A DNA stretch of 63,373 bases from an uncultured virus (IMG/VR IMGVR_UViG_3300031521_000018) (lineage: Duplodnaviria; Heunggongvirae; Uroviricota; Caudoviricetes), in IMG/VR virus record IMGVR_UViG_3300031521_000018, positions 62,001 to 125,373 of that record, one strand, 5' to 3'. Position numbers and translations under genes: made by a program. Position 1 is the stretch's first letter; each line of letters opens with the position of its first letter. This document shows, piece by piece, positions 1-21,237 of this stretch. The notes under the pieces were generated by a model. The model saw only the letters and a list, made by a program, of their open reading frames with translations, ran no database searches and was not told the origin of the DNA.

Positions 1-75
1 AAGGATAGAATTAAAACAATCTTCGAAATGACTAACGAGGATTATAAATTGGCGTATGATAATATTGTTAAATAA
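1..75 (+). CDS. 3' end of an upstream ORF (partial; ...KDRIKTIFEMTNEDYKLAYDNIVK*)
   Basis: Open frame from base 1 to TAA at 73-75, followed by a hairpin. Confidence 0.55.
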   Translation, partial: KDRIKTIFEMTNEDYKLAYDNIVK

Positions 76-93
76 TTTAAAAATATGTGTATA

Positions 94-124
94 TAAGACC
101 TCTATTAAATTAATAGAGGTCTTA
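94..124 (+). terminator. Perfect hairpin, probable terminator
   Basis: taagacctctattaa-a-ttaatagaggtctta inverted repeat. Confidence 0.6.
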
Positions 125-133
125 GAATATTTT

Positions 134-715
134 ATGATTTATAAGGAATATAGGTCTTATAACATAAGTAAATTTGGGTATTTTGTAAACATAGATGAAG
201 ATCAAGAGTCAAAAATAACCCATGTTCATTACACAGGTATAAAAAGATTATACAAACTTGAAACATATGGTGGTAAAACCTTATATGCCACCCAAGACCA
301 TATACTTCCTATATATCAGGTTACAGAGGTGTTAAAAGGAAATGATAAATTTTTTTCTATTGCTGATCTCAAACACAAAATTGATATGCATACAGGCAGC
401 AAATATAGTGTTATAAATTCAGGTGGATTCTGTGAGGAGGTAAAATCGATAGAAAAAATATTGGGATTTCATAGAGTATTTGACTTAACTATAAGTAACA
501 AAATGCATGTATTCGTTGCTAATGGTATCAAAGTGCATAACTGTGTAACTGCCGATACTGGTATAGAAATACTCAACAAAGAAACCTCAGAATTCAATCA
601 CATTCCAATATTTGAACTGTATTATTCAAACATAAAATCTAAAAATTGGTTAACCAAATTTGAATATTGGTTAACAAAAACAATTTATAAAATAAATAAT
701 AAAAACAAAGTGTAA
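134..715 (+). CDS. Stand-alone intein-only protein: IntC (blocks B, F, G) fused directly to a second IntN (block A)
   Basis: Block B 'LYATQDH', block F 'VFDLTI', block G 'VFVANGIKVHN', then 'CVTADTGIEI' (Cys codon 542-544). Start set at ATG 134, after the hairpin (ORF track starts at 56). Confidence 0.85.
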   Translation: MIYKEYRSYNISKFGYFVNIDEDQESKITHVHYTGIKRLYKLETYGGKTLYATQDHILPIYQVTEVLKGNDKFFSIADLKHKIDMHTGSKYSVINSGGFCEEVKSIEKILGFHRVFDLTISNKMHVFVANGIKVHNCVTADTGIEILNKETSEFNHIPIFELYYSNIKSKNWLTKFEYWLTKTIYKINNKNKV

Positions 716-4626: not shown

Positions 4627-6423
4627 ATGGCAAAGCAATTTTTCGTAGGCGATTCAGCCAAACTTTCAGATGTCAGTAATTTTATTGGACAATTCTTACC
4701 TGATGATTCAATATCTATGATTGATCAACCTGATATTGAATTTATTCCAAGTGGTTCATTTGTGCTTTCGGCTTGTATGAGTGGCTCACTTTTTGGTGGT
4801 GTTCCAAGTGGGCATTGTGTTATGATTTCGGGTGACCCAAAGACAGGAAAAAGCTATATAGTGTTGGATATTATAAGATTTTGTCAAATGTTAGGATATT
4901 ATCCAATTATATTTGATTCTGAGCACGCACACAGCAAGGAAAGATATATTGGTCAGGGTATAGACCCTGAAAATTGTCGTATTATTGTTCCTGAAACCAT
5001 AAACGAAATTACATCACCGATGGTTCAATTAACTCAATCATTGATGGATACAGCAGTAAAAATCACTGCAGAAAATAAAAAATTACCTTTAGATCAGAAA
5101 AAGTCAATTCCAAAAGTAGCTGTTTTTATTGATTCAGTTACATCTCTTAATTCATCAAAACAATTAGCCGATGCTTTGGAAGGTGAAATGAAAACTGATA
5201 TGGGTACAGTTGCCAAAGAACTTAAGGTAATGTACAATCTTTTGATACCAAGGTTCGGAAAATTAGGTATACCAATGGTTTGTACGGCACATACTTATGA
5301 AAAAGAGGAATTTCATCAGAAAGTTAAAACAATATCGGGTGGTAAAGGCTCAATGTATATGCCATCTATTGTTATTAATCTTCGTAAAACCTTTGATAAA
5401 GATGAAAATAAGCAGAAACAAGGTATAATCGTTACGGCTGAAATTATGGAGTCCCGTTTTTCAATGCACAGACCTGTTACTTTTTATATTTCTTTTACAA
5501 AAGGTATCAACAGATTTTTGGGGCTTGAGGAATTCATTTCATGGGATGTGTGTGGTATAACTAAAGGTAAAATGGTTGACTACATGAGTACTGCTCAGGA
5601 ACTTATTTCAAAGAAATTGGTGACTGTTGAAACCATACTTTCTACAAAATTTTCTACAAAATTGCTTTCGGCACAACTTGCTAAAAGCAAAGAAGAATCA
5701 TTCCAACCATCGTTTGAAGACGATTTGGATAATGGTTGTATAGAATTTGACTCTAATACAGACCAACAAATATGTTTACCAAATCTTATAGGATTTTTGG
5801 AAGATAGCGGTCATAACGTTAACCTTGAATTTGATACAGTATTCTTAAAGGAAAAAATGCAATTGAATGATATTTATTCAGATCAGGCATTTACTAAATG
5901 GATTCAGGGTTCAATAAGCAATGATGATTTGTTTGTTATGGGTAATGCCAAGATCAATATTGACAAGAACCAAAAATTCAAGTTTAAAAAGCCAATTTTG
6001 GATTCTATAAATAATAAGAAATATGAATACAGTGAATTCGTTTTCATGAATGAGGGTTCATCAAGCGATATAAAGTTTAATCTTAAACTTGATCAATCTT
6101 TTAAATTTACTGAAAAATTTGTAGCAGAGAAAATTAAAGATGGCAATGTGGTAAAAGAAGAACGCAAAATATGCAAGCCACAATCAACGTCTAACCAATA
6201 CTGTGTTAAGCATCTTAACAGGTGTGTTGAATTTAACCAATTATTTAACAAGACTGTTTTTGATACCGATACTCTTAAACAAATTGATGAAAAAATAATT
6301 AAACCATTATTCCAATATAGAACAGAATTTATTGAAAGTGAAAATAATTTGGAAGATAATGATAAAAGTGTAGAGGCAACAAATGATTTCGAAAATCAAA
6401 TGAATAATATCTTAAAACAGTAG
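4627..6423 (+). CDS. uvsX: UvsX/RecA-like recombinase with an enlarged C-terminal region
   Basis: 'SGSLFGGVP', Walker A 'GDPKTGKS', 'FDSE', Walker B 'VFIDS', 'SGGKG'. Confidence 0.9.
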   Translation: MAKQFFVGDSAKLSDVSNFIGQFLPDDSISMIDQPDIEFIPSGSFVLSACMSGSLFGGVPSGHCVMISGDPKTGKSYIVLDIIRFCQMLGYYPIIFDSEHAHSKERYIGQGIDPENCRIIVPETINEITSPMVQLTQSLMDTAVKITAENKKLPLDQKKSIPKVAVFIDSVTSLNSSKQLADALEGEMKTDMGTVAKELKVMYNLLIPRFGKLGIPMVCTAHTYEKEEFHQKVKTISGGKGSMYMPSIVINLRKTFDKDENKQKQGIIVTAEIMESRFSMHRPVTFYISFTKGINRFLGLEEFISWDVCGITKGKMVDYMSTAQELISKKLVTVETILSTKFSTKLLSAQLAKSKEESFQPSFEDDLDNGCIEFDSNTDQQICLPNLIGFLEDSGHNVNLEFDTVFLKEKMQLNDIYSDQAFTKWIQGSISNDDLFVMGNAKINIDKNQKFKFKKPILDSINNKKYEYSEFVFMNEGSSSDIKFNLKLDQSFKFTEKFVAEKIKDGNVVKEERKICKPQSTSNQYCVKHLNRCVEFNQLFNKTVFDTDTLKQIDEKIIKPLFQYRTEFIESENNLEDNDKSVEATNDFENQMNNILKQ

Positions 6424-13673: not shown

Positions 13674-14891
13674 ATGGTATATAATTTAGGTTTACAGTAC
13701 TGCAGGTTTAAGCAAGGACAAGAGGTGACAGTACAAGAAATTAAAGATGAAATTATACGTCTTGAAAACTTGAGATTTACCAAAAAGAGTGAGGATTTAT
13801 CTTTGAAAAAAATCCTCAATTCAATATATGGTGTATTTGGCTTTAGTAATTTTGTACTATATGACAAATATGTTGCCTCATCAATATCAACACAATCAGC
13901 TTATGTAATTAAATATACCAAATTTTGGTTCAATAAGTACTTTAAGGAAAGATTTCCATACATATACGATGTTCATAAACAACTTGGAATAACAAAGGTA
14001 ATACCTGTGACAGGTGATATTGTTATATATGGTGATACTGATTCCATATTTGTTAATTATGGCAAAATTATTAAGAATACTGATTATAAAGGTAGCGTTC
14101 AAGATTTCATATTAAAATTAAACGAACTTGACATATATCCCGCACTTGGTCATATGCTTTCGTATTTTATCGGCTTACATAATGGTTTACAGACAAGAAT
14201 ATCGGGTAAGCCATGTCTTAACTTAACATTTGAGCAAATAGTTGGTAAATTCCTTATTACCGCTAAAAAAAGGTATATTAAGGAATCATTATGGGCTGAT
14301 GGTAATACTTTTGGAAGATATGAAAATGTAAAAGCCGTTGGTCTCGAAATAAATCAGGCATCTGTACCAAAATTTATACGTAATAAATTGAAAGAGATTG
14401 TTATTGACTATATTATAAAAGTAGATAATATAGATTATGCGGTAATAATAGAAAAAGTAAAGCAAGTAAAGGAAGAATTTATACATACTGACATAATAAA
14501 TGTCCTACCCGCACAAAGGGTAAACAATTTGGGTAAATACATTCTTGAAAGTTCAAACAATGAAATAAAGACAATTGCGGGTTCTCAGGCATATATGAGA
14601 GCAATAGCACAATATAATAATGAGATTTCCATGTCATCTAATGAGATAAAGCAAAAATATTCTATAATAAAATCGGGTGATAAAGTTCAATGGTATTGGA
14701 CATCAAATGCATCAACAGATGTGTTTGCCTTTCCGATAGGTGTAATACCACCTCAATTTTTGCAGAAGTTTCCTGTATCATACGATGTACAATTTATGAC
14801 TAATTATTTAGCATATTTAAATAGAATATTATCAGCAATAGGATTACAAGAAATACCTTCATCTTTAGTGACTTTTAATTCGCTTTGGTAA
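13674..14891 (+). CDS. Family B DNA polymerase, C-terminal subunit (split gene, gp43B-like)
   Basis: Motif B 'KKILNSIYG', motif C 'YGDTDS', 'KKRY'; no exonuclease domain or motif A. Confidence 0.85.
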   Translation: MVYNLGLQYCRFKQGQEVTVQEIKDEIIRLENLRFTKKSEDLSLKKILNSIYGVFGFSNFVLYDKYVASSISTQSAYVIKYTKFWFNKYFKERFPYIYDVHKQLGITKVIPVTGDIVIYGDTDSIFVNYGKIIKNTDYKGSVQDFILKLNELDIYPALGHMLSYFIGLHNGLQTRISGKPCLNLTFEQIVGKFLITAKKRYIKESLWADGNTFGRYENVKAVGLEINQASVPKFIRNKLKEIVIDYIIKVDNIDYAVIIEKVKQVKEEFIHTDIINVLPAQRVNNLGKYILESSNNEIKTIAGSQAYMRAIAQYNNEISMSSNEIKQKYSIIKSGDKVQWYWTSNASTDVFAFPIGVIPPQFLQKFPVSYDVQFMTNYLAYLNRILSAIGLQEIPSSLVTFNSLW

Positions 14892-14989: not shown

Positions 14990-15496
14990 ATGGCTAACGA
15001 AAATATATACAGTACCGAAAGGGTAGAAGAAATATTAAAAGAATATAATAAAACGGGATACTTACCAAGGAACAACCCATTTTATCTTAAAGATATAAGG
15101 AAAAGGAAAGGTTATTTACATTTCCAATATACCGATAAAGAAATAACAGAGCTTGCTAAATTACAAGCATCATGTCTATACTTTGCTAATAATTATGCAT
15201 ATTGTATGACAGATGATGGTATTCAACAGATAAAATTAAGACCATATCAATCAAGAGTGCTTAGACAATTTGAAAGCTATAGATTTAATATATTTTTATC
15301 AAGTAGACAATCAGGTAAATGCTTGTCGGGTGATTCAATTATAACTGTTAATAACGAGAATATAACAATTAAGGATTTTTTCGAGAATATTTATTACTAC
15401 AAAATAAATAAGCCTTTAGCATTTTTATTAAGAATTAAGAGATTTCTTCAAAGAAAAGTAAATAATCAAAAATTAATTAGTACATCAACCATATGA
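14990..15496 (+). CDS. terL: Terminase large subunit N-terminal fragment fused to a split-intein N-half
   Basis: 'LRPYQ' adenine-binding motif and Walker A 'SRQSGK', immediately followed by intein block A 'CLSGDSIITV' (Cys 15320); ORF stops 58 aa later. Confidence 0.88.
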   Translation: MANENIYSTERVEEILKEYNKTGYLPRNNPFYLKDIRKRKGYLHFQYTDKEITELAKLQASCLYFANNYAYCMTDDGIQQIKLRPYQSRVLRQFESYRFNIFLSSRQSGKCLSGDSIITVNNENITIKDFFENIYYYKINKPLAFLLRIKRFLQRKVNNQKLISTSTI

Positions 15497-16825: not shown

Positions 16826-19800
16826 ATGAATGATATAGAAATTGAAGTCCTTTATGATTACCTTAAACAATCAAATTCTTTTTTAGAGGATATTTCTGAG
16901 TATTCATTTGATATATTATCGGCATCAACTGATATCTCCAAATCAGCTAAATTCATTAAAGATGCTATAGCGGGTGTTGATGCAAAGACTCAAAATGTCG
17001 ATGCAAAGACTATACAGCAGAATATACAAGCCGAAACAGCCAATACAGTTAATTCACAACAAAGCATGAATATAGGTTCTTATACTGAGGCTGATATTGC
17101 TAAACTATCAAAGATAATAACCATATATGCAAAATCAATTAATAAATCAGTTGGAACTTTACCAAAAGACACCAAGAAACTTTCTGAATCCATAAAAGCA
17201 GTTGATGTTGGATTTATATCCGCTTTGGGTAAAATGAAAATGAAAGATGCTGAATCTATGGTAAAGAATTTCTTTAATGTTTTAGAATCATTTGTTAAAC
17301 ATCTTAATAAATTTAAAATTAAAAAAGAAATATCAAGCAGAGCTAAAAAATCAATTGGATATGTTAGGTCTACTATAAATGAGGTTAGTAATGTAATGAA
17401 AGGTATAAATTTTGAAGGGCTTGATGGATTTGGTCATTCTCTTTTAAAAGTTGCTAGATCAATAACAGGATTTGTTGGTGCATTGGCTATTGGTGGTGCA
17501 CTATCGATAATAGCAACTCCAGGATTATTGTTCTTTAAATTAGCACTTAGAGTTTTACAACCCGAATTTAAATCTTTAGCAAAAGATAATAAAAAACTTA
17601 AAGATGGTGCACAATCCGTAATGTATATTGGTGCGGGGATACTTGCTATGTCACTTGCTATAGCTGCATCAGCATATGCTATTTCAAAATTCTCAATTAC
17701 AGATATGGTAGTTGGTATGGTAACTGTTATAGGTGTTACTTATATTGTAGCCAAATTTTATAAATACATGGGTCTGAGTGATAAATCAGACCTCAAGAAT
17801 GGTATTAAAAATATGGTACTTATGTCATTATCATTATTAATGATGACAGGTACTTTTTGGGTTATATCCAAGTTGCCAATAGACTATAAGCAGGTTGGTC
17901 TAACAGTTCTTTTGCTTGCGGGTACAGCAGCTTTATTTGCATTGATAGGAATGAAAACCGTATCTGATAAGGTTAAAGAAGGTGCTTTAGCTATAGGATT
18001 TGTATCATTGTCATTGTTGCTGTTTGGATTTTCAGTCTGTATAACCGCTAAAATGTTGGCGGGTCAGACTAATGCTATTTGGCAAATACCTTTGATGTTA
18101 TTCGCTGTAACAGCACCATTTGTAGCTGCAGGATTTTTACTTCCTAAAATAGCTATGGGTGCTTTAGCCTTTGCACTAATTGGAATATCTTTGTGGATAA
18201 TGAAAAAGCCACTTACAGAGATAGGAAATATGATAGCTAAAAATGGTGGTTTGATTTGGAAGATACCAACATTTATTACAGCTTTAGGGTTAGTTTATGC
18301 GGGTGCGGGATTGTTAATAGCACCGATATCTCTAGGTGCTTTAGCAGTTGGATTATTAGCGGGTTCTCTTTATGTATTAGCTAAAGCATTGAAACCAATA
18401 TCTGAACTTAACTTGGAAAGGGAGCAAATGAGCATATTTGCCGATAGTTTAGGAATAGTAGTTAAAGGTGTTTCTGATGCATTTTCTAATTTGAGTATTG
18501 GCTCATTCTTGAAAATAACAATGATGGGTAACAAAGTGGGAGAAGTTGTTGGTGTATTTGCAAGGTCTTTATCATATTGGAAAGCTACAACAACTGATTG
18601 GAAGCCTGAGGATGCCAAGACATTAGCTGATACCATATTGGGTGTAACAACGGCTGTGGCGTTGGGTACATCTCCTGAATATATAAAGAAAATGCATGGA
18701 ATAGATGTTTCACAATGGCAAATACTTAAGGGTATAGCATTTACAATGAGTTTGGGTAGTAATCTTAAAAAATTAGCGGATGGCGTTCTTGTTTGGAAAA
18801 ATATGAAGTTAAGTCCTGATGATGCAAGAAATATCTCAGATAATATCAATACAATTTTGTCTGTTATACCCGCAACTATAGCAAGGATAGGGAACGATGA
18901 TATTACTAAACCCGCAACAGGGCTTCTAGGATTTATAACAGGTGGTGCTTGGACAACAACAAATACAGAAAGAGGTATTGATTACGTTAAAGGTATTGGT
19001 AAAGCAATGACAAAACTTGCTGATGGTGTTAAAATGTGGAAAGAAATGAAATTAACACCAAATGATGCTAAACTTATTTCGGACAATGTAAATACTGTAC
19101 TTTCTATTATACCATCAACAATTTCAAAAATAGGAAATGATAATACTATAAAATCTAGCGGTCTTTTTGGGATTTGGAAAACAACAGATACAGAAAGAGG
19201 TATTGATTATGTTAAAGGCATAGGTAGGTCACTTTATGATTTGGGTGAGGGTGTAAAAACATGGAAAAGCATGAAATTAACACCAACAGAAACAAAGCTA
19301 ATTTCTGATAACATAAATGCGGTACTTTCGATTATACCTTCAACAATAGCCAAGATAGGTGATGATACAAAGACATCAAAGCCAGGACTATTTGGTATGT
19401 GGAAAACAACGGATACTGAACGTGGTATTAAATATGTTAATGGTCTTGGTGCTCCTTTAAAAGATTTATCAATCGCCGTATTAAATTGGAAACAGGCTAA
19501 ACTAACACCCGCTGATATAAAACTTATTGAGAAAAATATTACTGAACTTATAACAACTATACCATCGGCTTTTGCAGCAGTTGGTAGGGCTAAAAATAAT
19601 GACAAGGGATTTTGGGGGATGTTTAAATCGGATGCTGAAAAAGGTATACGTGTTGTAAATAACATGATGTCACCTTTAAAGAGTTTATCGGATGTGGTTT
19701 CTAGTTTTTCAGGTACTACAGATATAAAGGATAGAGGAAAGCAAATTGGTGAGGGTGTAAAACAATTATTGGTTGGAAGTGCCATTGGTATGTCGCTTCT

Positions 19801-20239
19801 TACCACTGATAAAGTTGATATATTTAACAAATTTATAGACCCATTTAAGAGATTTGCTGATATTTATATTAAATTCCTTAAAGATTTAAAAAATGAATCT
19901 GCAGGTATAGGTGACTTATCAAAAATTATAGATTCATCAGCTAATTTTTATGATAAATATTCAGCAGCCAACATAAAATCATCGGCTAGTTATAACAGTG
20001 TTTATAATTACAGCCAAACCTCACAGCAGCAAGCTGCAAAGCTTGTTGTACAAGCCCCACATAAGCCATTAACAAAAGAGGATAAATACGCACAAATGAT
20101 GTTGTTGTTCACTGAGGCTACAAGTCAACAACAACAACAAACGAATTTATTATTCAGAGAAATTCAAAAATTGAACTCAAAAATTGAGGGTTTAGTTGGT
20201 CACGATGGAAGAATGAAAGTAGGACTAAGTAATAATTAA
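16826..20239 (+). CDS. Tape-measure-like protein
   Basis: 1137 aa, Ala/Gly/Ile-rich, many hydrophobic helices, ~70-80-aa internal repeats (W.TT.TERGI.YV.G); late motif upstream. Confidence 0.65.
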   Translation: MNDIEIEVLYDYLKQSNSFLEDISEYSFDILSASTDISKSAKFIKDAIAGVDAKTQNVDAKTIQQNIQAETANTVNSQQSMNIGSYTEADIAKLSKIITIYAKSINKSVGTLPKDTKKLSESIKAVDVGFISALGKMKMKDAESMVKNFFNVLESFVKHLNKFKIKKEISSRAKKSIGYVRSTINEVSNVMKGINFEGLDGFGHSLLKVARSITGFVGALAIGGALSIIATPGLLFFKLALRVLQPEFKSLAKDNKKLKDGAQSVMYIGAGILAMSLAIAASAYAISKFSITDMVVGMVTVIGVTYIVAKFYKYMGLSDKSDLKNGIKNMVLMSLSLLMMTGTFWVISKLPIDYKQVGLTVLLLAGTAALFALIGMKTVSDKVKEGALAIGFVSLSLLLFGFSVCITAKMLAGQTNAIWQIPLMLFAVTAPFVAAGFLLPKIAMGALAFALIGISLWIMKKPLTEIGNMIAKNGGLIWKIPTFITALGLVYAGAGLLIAPISLGALAVGLLAGSLYVLAKALKPISELNLEREQMSIFADSLGIVVKGVSDAFSNLSIGSFLKITMMGNKVGEVVGVFARSLSYWKATTTDWKPEDAKTLADTILGVTTAVALGTSPEYIKKMHGIDVSQWQILKGIAFTMSLGSNLKKLADGVLVWKNMKLSPDDARNISDNINTILSVIPATIARIGNDDITKPATGLLGFITGGAWTTTNTERGIDYVKGIGKAMTKLADGVKMWKEMKLTPNDAKLISDNVNTVLSIIPSTISKIGNDNTIKSSGLFGIWKTTDTERGIDYVKGIGRSLYDLGEGVKTWKSMKLTPTETKLISDNINAVLSIIPSTIAKIGDDTKTSKPGLFGMWKTTDTERGIKYVNGLGAPLKDLSIAVLNWKQAKLTPADIKLIEKNITELITTIPSAFAAVGRAKNNDKGFWGMFKSDAEKGIRVVNNMMSPLKSLSDVVSSFSGTTDIKDRGKQIGEGVKQLLVGSAIGMSLLTTDKVDIFNKFIDPFKRFADIYIKFLKDLKNESAGIGDLSKIIDSSANFYDKYSAANIKSSASYNSVYNYSQTSQQQAAKLVVQAPHKPLTKEDKYAQMMLLFTEATSQQQQQTNLLFREIQKLNSKIEGLVGHDGRMKVGLSNN

Positions 20240-20247
20240 TAAAACAA

Positions 20248-21237
20248 CTATATAGAAAAATCAGAAAATTTTCTAATAAATTGTATATTTAAATTAATTT
20301 CCCTTGATATTTCTCTCTTCAAACAATCACGATTGTATGCAGAAATAGCACCTTTGTAATAATTACTAAATTCTGATTTTTCTTTCCATTTTTTAATCAT
20401 TTCATTTCTTTCTTTCTCAGATAAATATTGTGGTTTATGTGTCCATATTCCATCATATTCTATAAACAAATCCAAAGACTTGATATAAAAATCACAAGCA
20501 AATAAATATTTAGTTTCTTTACTATAATATCTTTTATCTCTATATTGACGAACAATATCTGAATATCCAAACAATTCTATTAGATTATAATATATTTCAT
20601 TCTCCTCTTTAGATTTTTCATAAGAACCATTTTTCTTTTTGGTTTCGTGTATTTTTGATATAGTACTTGATAGATATGACATATTTCCTACACCATATCT
20701 TTCCAAACATGTTTTCTCATATTTTCCTTTGAATTCGTCAGTTTGTTGATACCATTCTACACCGTAAATTTTAAGATTTGTTTGCTTTGATTTTTCTACA
20801 AAATCTTCTATAAGCATATGATTTTCGACACCATATTTTTTCAAGCATGTTTCTTTATATTTTTCTTTATATTCATCAGTTTTGGAATAATTTTCGACAC
20901 CATATTTTTCTAAACAAGTCAATTCTGCTTTTATATAATTTTTCTTACAATTGTCTGACCATTTTTCAGATGATTGAAATTTTTTAGCACATATTTTTGA
21001 GCAGCAAACCTGATAACAGTATTTGTGTCTGTCAAAATTCGATTGCTTTCCACAAATTTCACAATATTGTATATTAAAATTACTATTAATTATATGCCAC
21101 ATTCTTTGTTTTGGAGTTATGTGTTTGCAACTATCATCTAGAAATGAAGTTAATTCACATATTTTCCTAAATTCACATATTTTAATACTTGATTTGTATG
21201 TGTTGTTATTATACCAATTTATTAAATCATTGTACAT
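20248..21237 (-). CDS. Putative free-standing homing endonuclease (Zn-binding motif, KYGVE repeats, PD-(D/E)xK-type C-terminus)
   Basis: CxxC...CC..C, repeated 'TCLEKYGVEN', C-terminal 'CDFYI..LDLFIEYDG.WTH'; opposite strand inside the late cluster. Confidence 0.7.
   Translation of the reverse strand: MYNDLINWYNNNTYKSSIKICEFRKICELTSFLDDSCKHITPKQRMWHIINSNFNIQYCEICGKQSNFDRHKYCYQVCCSKICAKKFQSSEKWSDNCKKNYIKAELTCLEKYGVENYSKTDEYKEKYKETCLKKYGVENHMLIEDFVEKSKQTNLKIYGVEWYQQTDEFKGKYEKTCLERYGVGNMSYLSSTISKIHETKKKNGSYEKSKEENEIYYNLIELFGYSDIVRQYRDKRYYSKETKYLFACDFYIKSLDLFIEYDGIWTHKPQYLSEKERNEMIKKWKEKSEFSNYYKGAISAYNRDCLKREISREINLNIQFIRKFSDFSI

Follow-up and report, generated by a model that had tools for sequence, protein, structure and literature searches.

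A conserved phage gene family of intein halves alone and its proposed role in two-step trans-splicing of the terminase large subunit

AceL-TerL and GOS-TerL are said to be atypically split inteins of the phage terminase large subunit (TerL), in work attributed to Thiel 2014 and to Bachmann and Mootz 2015. Two engineered arrangements are also relevant here. A middle fragment made of the C-terminal part (IntC) of one intein, an extein and the N-terminal part (IntN) of another allows outer pieces to be joined by two successive splicings, while in SICLOPPS the two halves of a single intein are arranged as IntC-extein-IntN, the extein being needed for peptide cyclisation. The available text of two reports (PMC7090010, PMC11168065) describes engineered tandem trans-splicing, in which fragments are joined with orthogonal split inteins. 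A GOS 'Terminase' split intein with a 122-aa IntC that contains every motif except N1 is described in the accessible part of Dassa et al. 2009 (PMC2677866), and it was in these metagenomic GOS data that the atypically split TerL kind first came to light. The IntN pieces of AceL-TerL and GOS-TerL are interchangeable, and Cys+1 is tabulated for both, in the available part of PMC11766414; such interchange makes cross-reaction plausible in this intein family. As far as the accessible text of bioRxiv 10.1101/2023.01.30.526203 goes, inteins are either contiguous or split in two, with each half attached to an extein, and several inteins can occupy nearby sites in one host protein (available portion of PMC10643990). 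The literature searched, with the primary AceL-TerL and GOS-TerL papers lying outside it, contained no natural extein-less IntC-IntN protein and no tandem inteins at zero spacing, and used the term 'permuted intein' in engineering papers only.

The DNA analysed here (the window, 63,373 nucleotides) spans bases 62001-125373 of one linear viral record of 125,373 bp (G+C 30%; completeness rating 83%). Its gene set is that of a large T4-like myovirus, with a UvsX-like recombinase, DnaB-like and Dda-like helicases, portal, family B DNA polymerase, TerL and a head-closure protein. A preliminary description of the window drew attention to an open reading frame in which IntC blocks B, F and G are followed directly by block A of an IntN. 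We refer to this gene as the adapter, to its two parts as IntC1 and IntN2, and to the intein parts carried by the TerL genes as IntN1 and IntC2.

An intein-only gene and the dispersed pieces of TerL

The frame reads ...GIKVHN/CVTADTGIEI... (a slash marks a splice junction), with no extein between the two halves, and with His-Asn at 536-541; the Cys codon TGT (542-544) and the stop codon (713-715) were confirmed at the positions first given. The start had to be revised. The ATG at 134, initially taken as the beginning of the gene, corresponds to Ile or Leu in all three close homologues, which are of equal length and 69-74% identical, and none of which has a Met at this position. The frame upstream of 134 is open and conserved in the same three homologues, and a hydrophobic and acidic motif encoded there, the head, recurs in other adapters, in IntC-TerL proteins and, in frame, within the contiguous intein of a related genome (G020). 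A homologous head is a feature of every IntC in this intein family. Based on the missing Met, the conserved upstream frame and the homology of the head, the gene most likely starts at ATG 56, overlaps the stop of the upstream gene and encodes 219 aa. The coordinates of all features are collected in Table 1.

Table 1. Parts of the adapter gene and pieces of TerL (window coordinates unless marked as genome)
Feature	Position	Strand	Evidence
Adapter gene (most likely start), 219 aa: head helix, IntC1, Cys, IntN2, tail helix	56..715	+	ORF list, 3 same-length homologues, stand-alone family, AlphaFold2
N-terminal head helix of IntC1, residues 1-26	56..133	+	predicted helix 2-27; homologous hydrophobic/acidic motif
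IntC1 core: block B (T..H), block F (Asp), block G to His-Asn	134..541	+	PF14890 match, invariant residues
Cys163, +1 nucleophile of intein 1 and residue 1 of intein 2	542..544	+	sequence; invariant 15/15
IntN2, 57 aa: block A, beta hairpin, short helix, amphipathic tail helix	542..712	+	top match of IntN profile
TerL N-extein, 110 aa, ends in Walker A SRQSGK	14990..15319	+	PHROG terminase large subunit families, E 7.6e-15 and 4.2e-11
IntN1, 58 aa, Cys1, basic tail, then stop	15320..15496	+	translation; second-best match of IntN profile
IntC2-TerL: head, IntC2, HN/S, rest of ATPase domain	genome 39500-40588 (39.5-40.6 kb)	minus	genome-wide intein-family scan
TerL nuclease domain, 278-aa ORF, intein-free	genome G000:C1:18063-18806	minus	full-length relative as query

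A terminator-like hairpin of 14 bp, followed by a T-rich run, was found inside the head-coding region (window 94-124, plus strand); the terminator scan returned three sites, against 0.2 expected in shuffles. At the stem-pairing codons of this hairpin, the close homologues show Ser to Phe together with Glu to Lys, and Ser to Leu together with Glu to Arg. Judged by the codon table applied to the homologue proteins, these replacements would be compatible with compensatory base changes by which the stem is preserved.

The two halves of the adapter were recognised as intein parts by different routes. The Pfam family PF14890 (Intein_splicing) matched the part encoded by 134-541, with residues 24-136 aligned to profile positions 34-155 of 155 (E 2e-7, 31.4 bits); since the match opens at position 34, only the first ca. 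33 profile positions, corresponding to block A, are absent from IntC1. The score falls below the curated cut-off of 35.8, as does that of IntC2 (19.9 bits), both being partial domains without block A. For the 57-aa segment after His-Asn, no match was obtained in Pfam or PHROG, and it was a custom profile that identified this half as an intein part. The profile, for which IntN ends were taken from 12 TerL-N genes of the true two-piece type in related phages, was run against the 1569 open frames of at least 30 aa in the genome; it ranked the adapter segment first (E 0.0034, aligned from the Cys) and the IntN of TerL-N second (E 0.007), the next frame following at 0.35. Positions 161-215 of the adapter-family model likewise matched the IntN end of the TerL-N gene of a two-piece relative, G013 (E 4.6e-5). 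IntN2 is the most conserved part of the adapter protein.

All residues of a class 1 intein are present in the sequence, namely Cys or Ser1 of block A, T..H of block B, Asp of block F, His-Asn of block G and a +1 Cys or Ser. The AlphaFold2 model of the adapter (mean pLDDT 83.8) contained a complete HINT domain, with the tail helix (198-216) lying alongside the head helix (2-27). A Foldseek comparison of the model with the PDB gave 42 matches at E <= 0.001, the top ones being inteins (best E 5.5e-7; target-normalised TM 0.55-0.68). The adapter is thus predicted to have the HINT fold of class 1 inteins.

The IntN to which IntN2 had been likened was found as described, on the TerL-N gene (window 14990-15496), where 58 aa follow SRQSGK beginning with a Cys. 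This nucleophile is Cys111 of TerL-N; in the G006 lineage and in the fused protein P0038 (see below) it is replaced by Ser1. The preliminary description had further postulated an IntC2-TerL-C encoded elsewhere. A genome-wide intein-family scan revealed a partial intein signal at 40.2-40.5 kb of the genome, on the minus strand, within an ORF of 362 aa that opens with a Met just past the stop codon of the gene before it, encodes a head helix followed by blocks B, F and G, and continues after HN/S into a C-extein matching Pfam Terminase_6N at positions 16-197 (E 7.5e-4). In 20 sequences, His84, Asp127, His145 and Asn146 of IntC2 are invariant, and Ser147 is nearly so. The postulated gene therefore exists, but it encodes only the rest of the ATPase domain and not the whole remainder of TerL: the nuclease domain is encoded separately, there is no intein at the end of the ATPase piece, and TerL thus consists of three extein pieces with only one intein-mediated junction. 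The separate nuclease ORF is arranged in the same way in a second genome, G001. Pfam terminase families gave no match over the whole genome, and the nuclease piece surfaced only when a full-length relative was used as the query. A phmmer comparison of the intein parts with all frames of the genome revealed no internal paralogy (IntC1 versus IntC2, E 0.86).

At the intein-mediated junction, TerL-N ends in SRQSGK/ and TerL-C begins with /SITSG, while intein-free TerL reads GK/T; joining GK to Ser would therefore restore a normal Walker A, as in intein-free relatives. The break between blocks A and B and the insertion in the Walker A motif of TerL are features of atypically split TerL inteins. 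The pieces are dispersed over the genome, at 77 kb, 62 kb and 40 kb, on two strands. An IntC2-TerL frame identical to that of this genome (G000) is present on a metagenome contig of 172,256 bp (L251), which means that this phage is also represented by a longer record; protein tables also give a contig of 172,977 bp.

Several further features of the same DNA were recorded. The family B DNA polymerase is also split, with a C-terminal part of 405 aa (window 13674-14891) directly upstream of TerL-N and an N-terminal part of 492 aa (L006 7164-8642, minus strand) ca. 1 kb downstream of IntC2-TerL. Neither polymerase piece shows intein motifs at its ends, and the C-terminal piece is paired with TerL-N in G001 too; the paired break points in polymerase and TerL suggest an old rearrangement. 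In the 598-aa UvsX/RecA-like protein (window 4627-6423), the family match covers only residues 13-449, in a stretched alignment, and an insertion or extra domain is possible. Apart from a homing-endonuclease-like ORF (window 20248-21237, minus strand; phrog_3339, E 2.4e-16), that part of the window has no large gene on the minus strand; a 1137-aa ORF (window 16826-20239) had no match in PHROG or Pfam.

The adapter family and a fused intermediate

An exhaustive HMMER search of 1.84 billion representatives yielded 88 matches at E <= 0.001. Among the 18 matches read, ten were stand-alone proteins of 198-232 aa with the full head-IntC-HN/C-IntN-tail architecture, seven were ordinary inteins in larger proteins, and one was P0038. 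At least 14 protein clusters have the adapter architecture, and the longest contig with a member measures 246,571 bp. An alignment of 15 members, made up of stand-alone adapters, the close homologues and the G005 and G006 adapters, extends down to 22% identity. His82 (block B), Asp143 (block F), His161-Asn162 and Cys163 are invariant in all 15, as is one Tyr of IntN2, and every member has the HN/C junction without an extein. The adapter is therefore a conserved gene family.

Other IMG/VR loci with an HN/CV pattern were considered as adapters and turned out to be ordinary inteins in unrelated proteins. Among the ordinary matches of the HMMER search, P0041 (701 aa) comes nearest to zero spacing, with two inteins 9 extein residues apart.

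The arrangement recurs in related phages. Each of eight adapter-bearing records, G000, G001 (167 kb), G005 (150 kb), G006 (149 kb, terminal repeats) and G053-G056 (ca. 150 kb each, three with terminal repeats), contains exactly one TerL-N-IntN1, one adapter and one IntC2-TerL, dispersed, and seven of the eight have a completeness rating of 100%. G000 and G001 agree in how TerL-N, adapter, IntC2-TerL and nuclease ORF are ordered and oriented relative to one another. No adapter was found in eight related records with two-piece or contiguous TerL inteins (G007, G008, G009, G013, G014, G016, G019 and G020), which are only 9-75% complete. A further group, 'yF', has an IntC2-type head on a full-length TerL-C (G018, L198, L205), with no TerL-N or adapter within the DNA searched.

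These data bear on two possibilities raised at the outset, that the ORF is a decaying remnant or an assembly chimera. Pfam intein scores below the curated cut-off could speak for either. The same ORF recurs in other IMG/VR records of the same phage, in eight genome records and in at least 14 protein clusters; the HN/C junction is invariant, the catalytic residues are unchanged in 15 of 15 family members, and omega is ca. 0.1 (0.06-0.12 for the individual intein parts). Since all four intein parts are under purifying selection, a remnant is ruled out, and we assign next to no probability to remnant and chimera taken together.

The residue at position +1 also distinguishes the genes: in this dataset HN/C occurs in adapters only, and TerL-C pieces have HN/S or HN/T. 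Because HN/C marks adapters and not TerL-C pieces here, it is a possibility that the published IntC pieces of AceL-TerL and GOS-TerL, given their Cys+1, came from adapters.

P0038 (376 aa), a protein found on two contigs, the longest of 167,903 bp, consists of TerL-N up to GK, an unsplit intein (Ser1 ... His-Asn) and then, directly, Cys, IntN2 and the tail, with which the protein ends. It is an evolutionary intermediate in which two inteins are stacked at one site with zero extein between them. The layout implies that in that phage the N-extein can reach TerL-C only via IntN2. The suggestion that tandem inteins at one site lie at the origin of the adapter was thus borne out in a single chain, and comparison of P0038 with the window phage indicates that the intein-only gene arose by splitting of the first stacked intein.

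In a tree of 51 IntC rows, IntC1 and IntC2 came out as distinct lineages. IntC2 sequences formed a clade with 99/99 support and two-piece inteins formed a third clade (96/97), while the cis intein of P0038 grouped with adapter IntC1 on a long branch (81/73). The IntC of one adapter, P0020, nested in the two-piece clade (97/94), and its IntN resembled the IntN of that clade; this placement suggests a second, independent origin of adapters.

Selection, pairing of the halves and a proposed relay

Codon alignments of five related genomes (G006 and G053-G056) gave omega values of 0.122 for IntN1, 0.111 for IntC1, 0.059 for IntN2 and 0.055 for IntC2, with 0.010 and 0.009 for the N- and C-exteins of the same genomes. 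For the whole adapter, omega was 0.07-0.13 in all ten genome pairs. The two halves of the adapter thus differ in rate, IntC1 matching IntN1 and IntN2 matching IntC2, though IntC1 and IntN2 share a gene. In a deeper comparison (G000, G001, G005 and G006), identity was lower for IntN1 than for IntN2 and lower for IntC1 than for IntC2 in six of six pairs. This covariation, which comes from five close and four deep genomes that are related and non-independent, supports, short of proof, the cognate pairs IntN1:IntC1 and IntN2:IntC2 and not IntN1:IntC2 and IntN2:IntC1. Charges may point the same way: basic character is strongest in the IntN1 tails (net +3 to +7, with 0-1 acidic residues) and acidic character in the IntC1 heads (2-5 acidic residues), which is weakly consistent with complementary pairing of the two.

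Together, the three genes (TerL-N-IntN1; head-IntC1-Cys-IntN2-tail; head-IntC2-Ser-TerL, the last with the rest of the ATPase domain) represent two split inteins of the same family, both broken after block A and stacked in the Walker A motif of TerL (GK/S) with zero extein between them. IntN1 would dock onto IntC1 by strand complementation and by packing of the tail helix against the head helix. In the first step, splicing by IntN1 and IntC1 would move TerL-N onto Cys163, giving TerL-N-IntN2. In the second step, IntN2 would dock with IntC2 and splice GK to Ser, producing a seamless ATPase domain with an intact Walker A and releasing both inteins. The reverse order would be chemically equivalent, the adapter and IntC2-TerL yielding IntC1-TerL, which would then react with TerL-N-IntN1. 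A cross-reaction of IntN2 with IntC1 between molecules would give the adapter again, so the network would still drain to mature TerL, and only self-cleavage in cis would be harmful. We consider it probable that the adapter acts in such a two-step relay of protein trans-splicing for TerL. The evidence is thus on the side of the relay put forward in the preliminary description; its cognate pairing, its two-step chemistry and the requirement for the adapter, including the inability of IntN1 to use IntC2, are what we infer.

The need for the adapter would lie in the incompatibility of IntN1 with IntC2, to which conservation of the adapter points. Alternatively, IntN1 and IntC2 could be compatible and splice directly, in which case the adapter would be dispensable, serving to delay, buffer or tune TerL maturation or persisting as a selfish passenger. 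Exchange of IntN between related TerL inteins is reported in the available part of PMC11766414, and in a fully promiscuous network every path would end in mature TerL. A comparison with two-piece relatives is relevant here: the adapter tail (on IntN2) and head (on IntC1) resemble the cognate pairs of these relatives. The tail of IntN1 and the head of IntC2, by contrast, are each in a derived state, as may happen in partners that co-evolve. This pattern would fit equally well direct co-evolved partners and TerL-bound halves that drift while remaining compatible with a conservative adapter. A dispensable gene should, however, decay, and the adapter evolves with an omega of ca. 0.1, keeps its catalytic residues invariant down to 22% identity and is retained alongside the derived pieces in eight of eight adapter-bearing genomes. 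The rates, too, pair IntN1 with IntC1 and not with IntC2, and a covalent link joins the N-extein to IntN2 in P0038. We therefore regard direct splicing as unlikely. We draw no conclusion from a three-chain complex prediction that combined the adapter with IntC2 and the end of TerL-N bearing IntN1 (scores 0.40, 0.32 and 0.43; 0.56 in a control that had another chain in place of IntC2).

Structure prediction bears on another alternative. In the AlphaFold2 model of the adapter alone, IntN2 docked in cis onto IntC1, with pLDDT of 84-91 in this region; in a model of P0038, IntN2 was docked again, while the protein's own IntN1 had pLDDT below 50 and alignment rows were lacking for the first 160 residues. 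The adapter could be a single, circularly permuted intein whose IntN2 pairs with the IntC1 present in its own chain or in another adapter molecule, leading to self-cleavage at HN/C or self-regeneration for a purpose unrelated to TerL. The confident docking in cis agrees with this, as does the position of P0020, both halves of which are close to those of the two-piece clade. Prediction tends, however, to complete a known fold whatever its specificity, and the run with P0038 was biased by alignment coverage. With zero extein, cleavage would be the sole product and would have no apparent function. IntN2 is, moreover, far more conserved than IntC1 and evolves at the rate of IntC2, and in P0038 a complete intein 1 lies upstream of IntN2. 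A permuted intein is, in our judgement, improbable.

A stronger form of the relay would be obligate. The adapter would be required, and the stacked paralogous split inteins would be mutually orthogonal, with IntN1 using only IntC1 and IntN2 only IntC2; such a system would have originated, more than once, by entry of one intein into an occupied site, with P0038 as the intermediate, and subsequent lock-in. We lean only slightly towards this form. If true, this form would be the first multi-step cascade of protein trans-splicing from nature and possibly a hybrid-incompatibility lock between co-infecting phages.

Comparison with known split inteins

A conserved natural protein made of intein halves alone would be new. 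If the relay is real, natural protein splicing can proceed as a cascade, and an essential enzyme can rely on a gene none of whose residues remain in the product; intein stacking at one insertion site would likewise have a concrete case. The adapter would also offer a testable example of selfish elements turning indispensable, and it provides natural atypical split pairs with short IntN parts, whose orthogonality, if confirmed, would be useful for multi-fragment protein ligation.

Two-piece relatives of the atypical TerL kind are present in G008, G009, G013, G014 and G019, and in some of these the halves flank a free-standing endonuclease gene. In G013 a 373-aa endonuclease-like ORF (L165 389-1510) lies between TerL-N-IntN and IntC-TerL-C, which makes this a classical fractured locus, and a similar ORF is found two genes from the adapter in G001 (L060 8-832). 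IntC parts of the atypical family with HN/T are also fused to two non-TerL proteins, judged by eye to be clamp-loader-like and DnaB-like (L160 700-1866 in G019; L157 793-1875 in G017), so the family is not confined to TerL.

By description, the present system resembles the atypical TerL inteins in the accessible part of PMC2677866: the host protein is a phage TerL (gp17-like), the break comes after block A, and a short IntN is combined with a long IntC that contains blocks B, F and G. It differs from two-piece TerL inteins, in which IntC is attached to the C-extein, in having a third gene where IntC is attached to another IntN with no extein. Unlike the fractured gene of Dassa 2009, with adjacent halves and an endonuclease between them, the pieces in G000 are dispersed on two strands. 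Inteins at nearby sites of one host protein are likewise a different case, for here the two inteins abut with zero spacing, Cys1 of intein 2 being bonded to the last residue, Asn, of intein 1, and both are split, which leaves an intein-only gene. The adapter shares with SICLOPPS the order of IntC before IntN in one chain, but it has no extein, and its halves appear to come from two inteins. The engineered middle fragments of tandem trans-splicing are similar in carrying the IntC of one intein and the IntN of another; their extein stays in the product, whereas the adapter would add no residue, since Cys163 would leave with intein 2.
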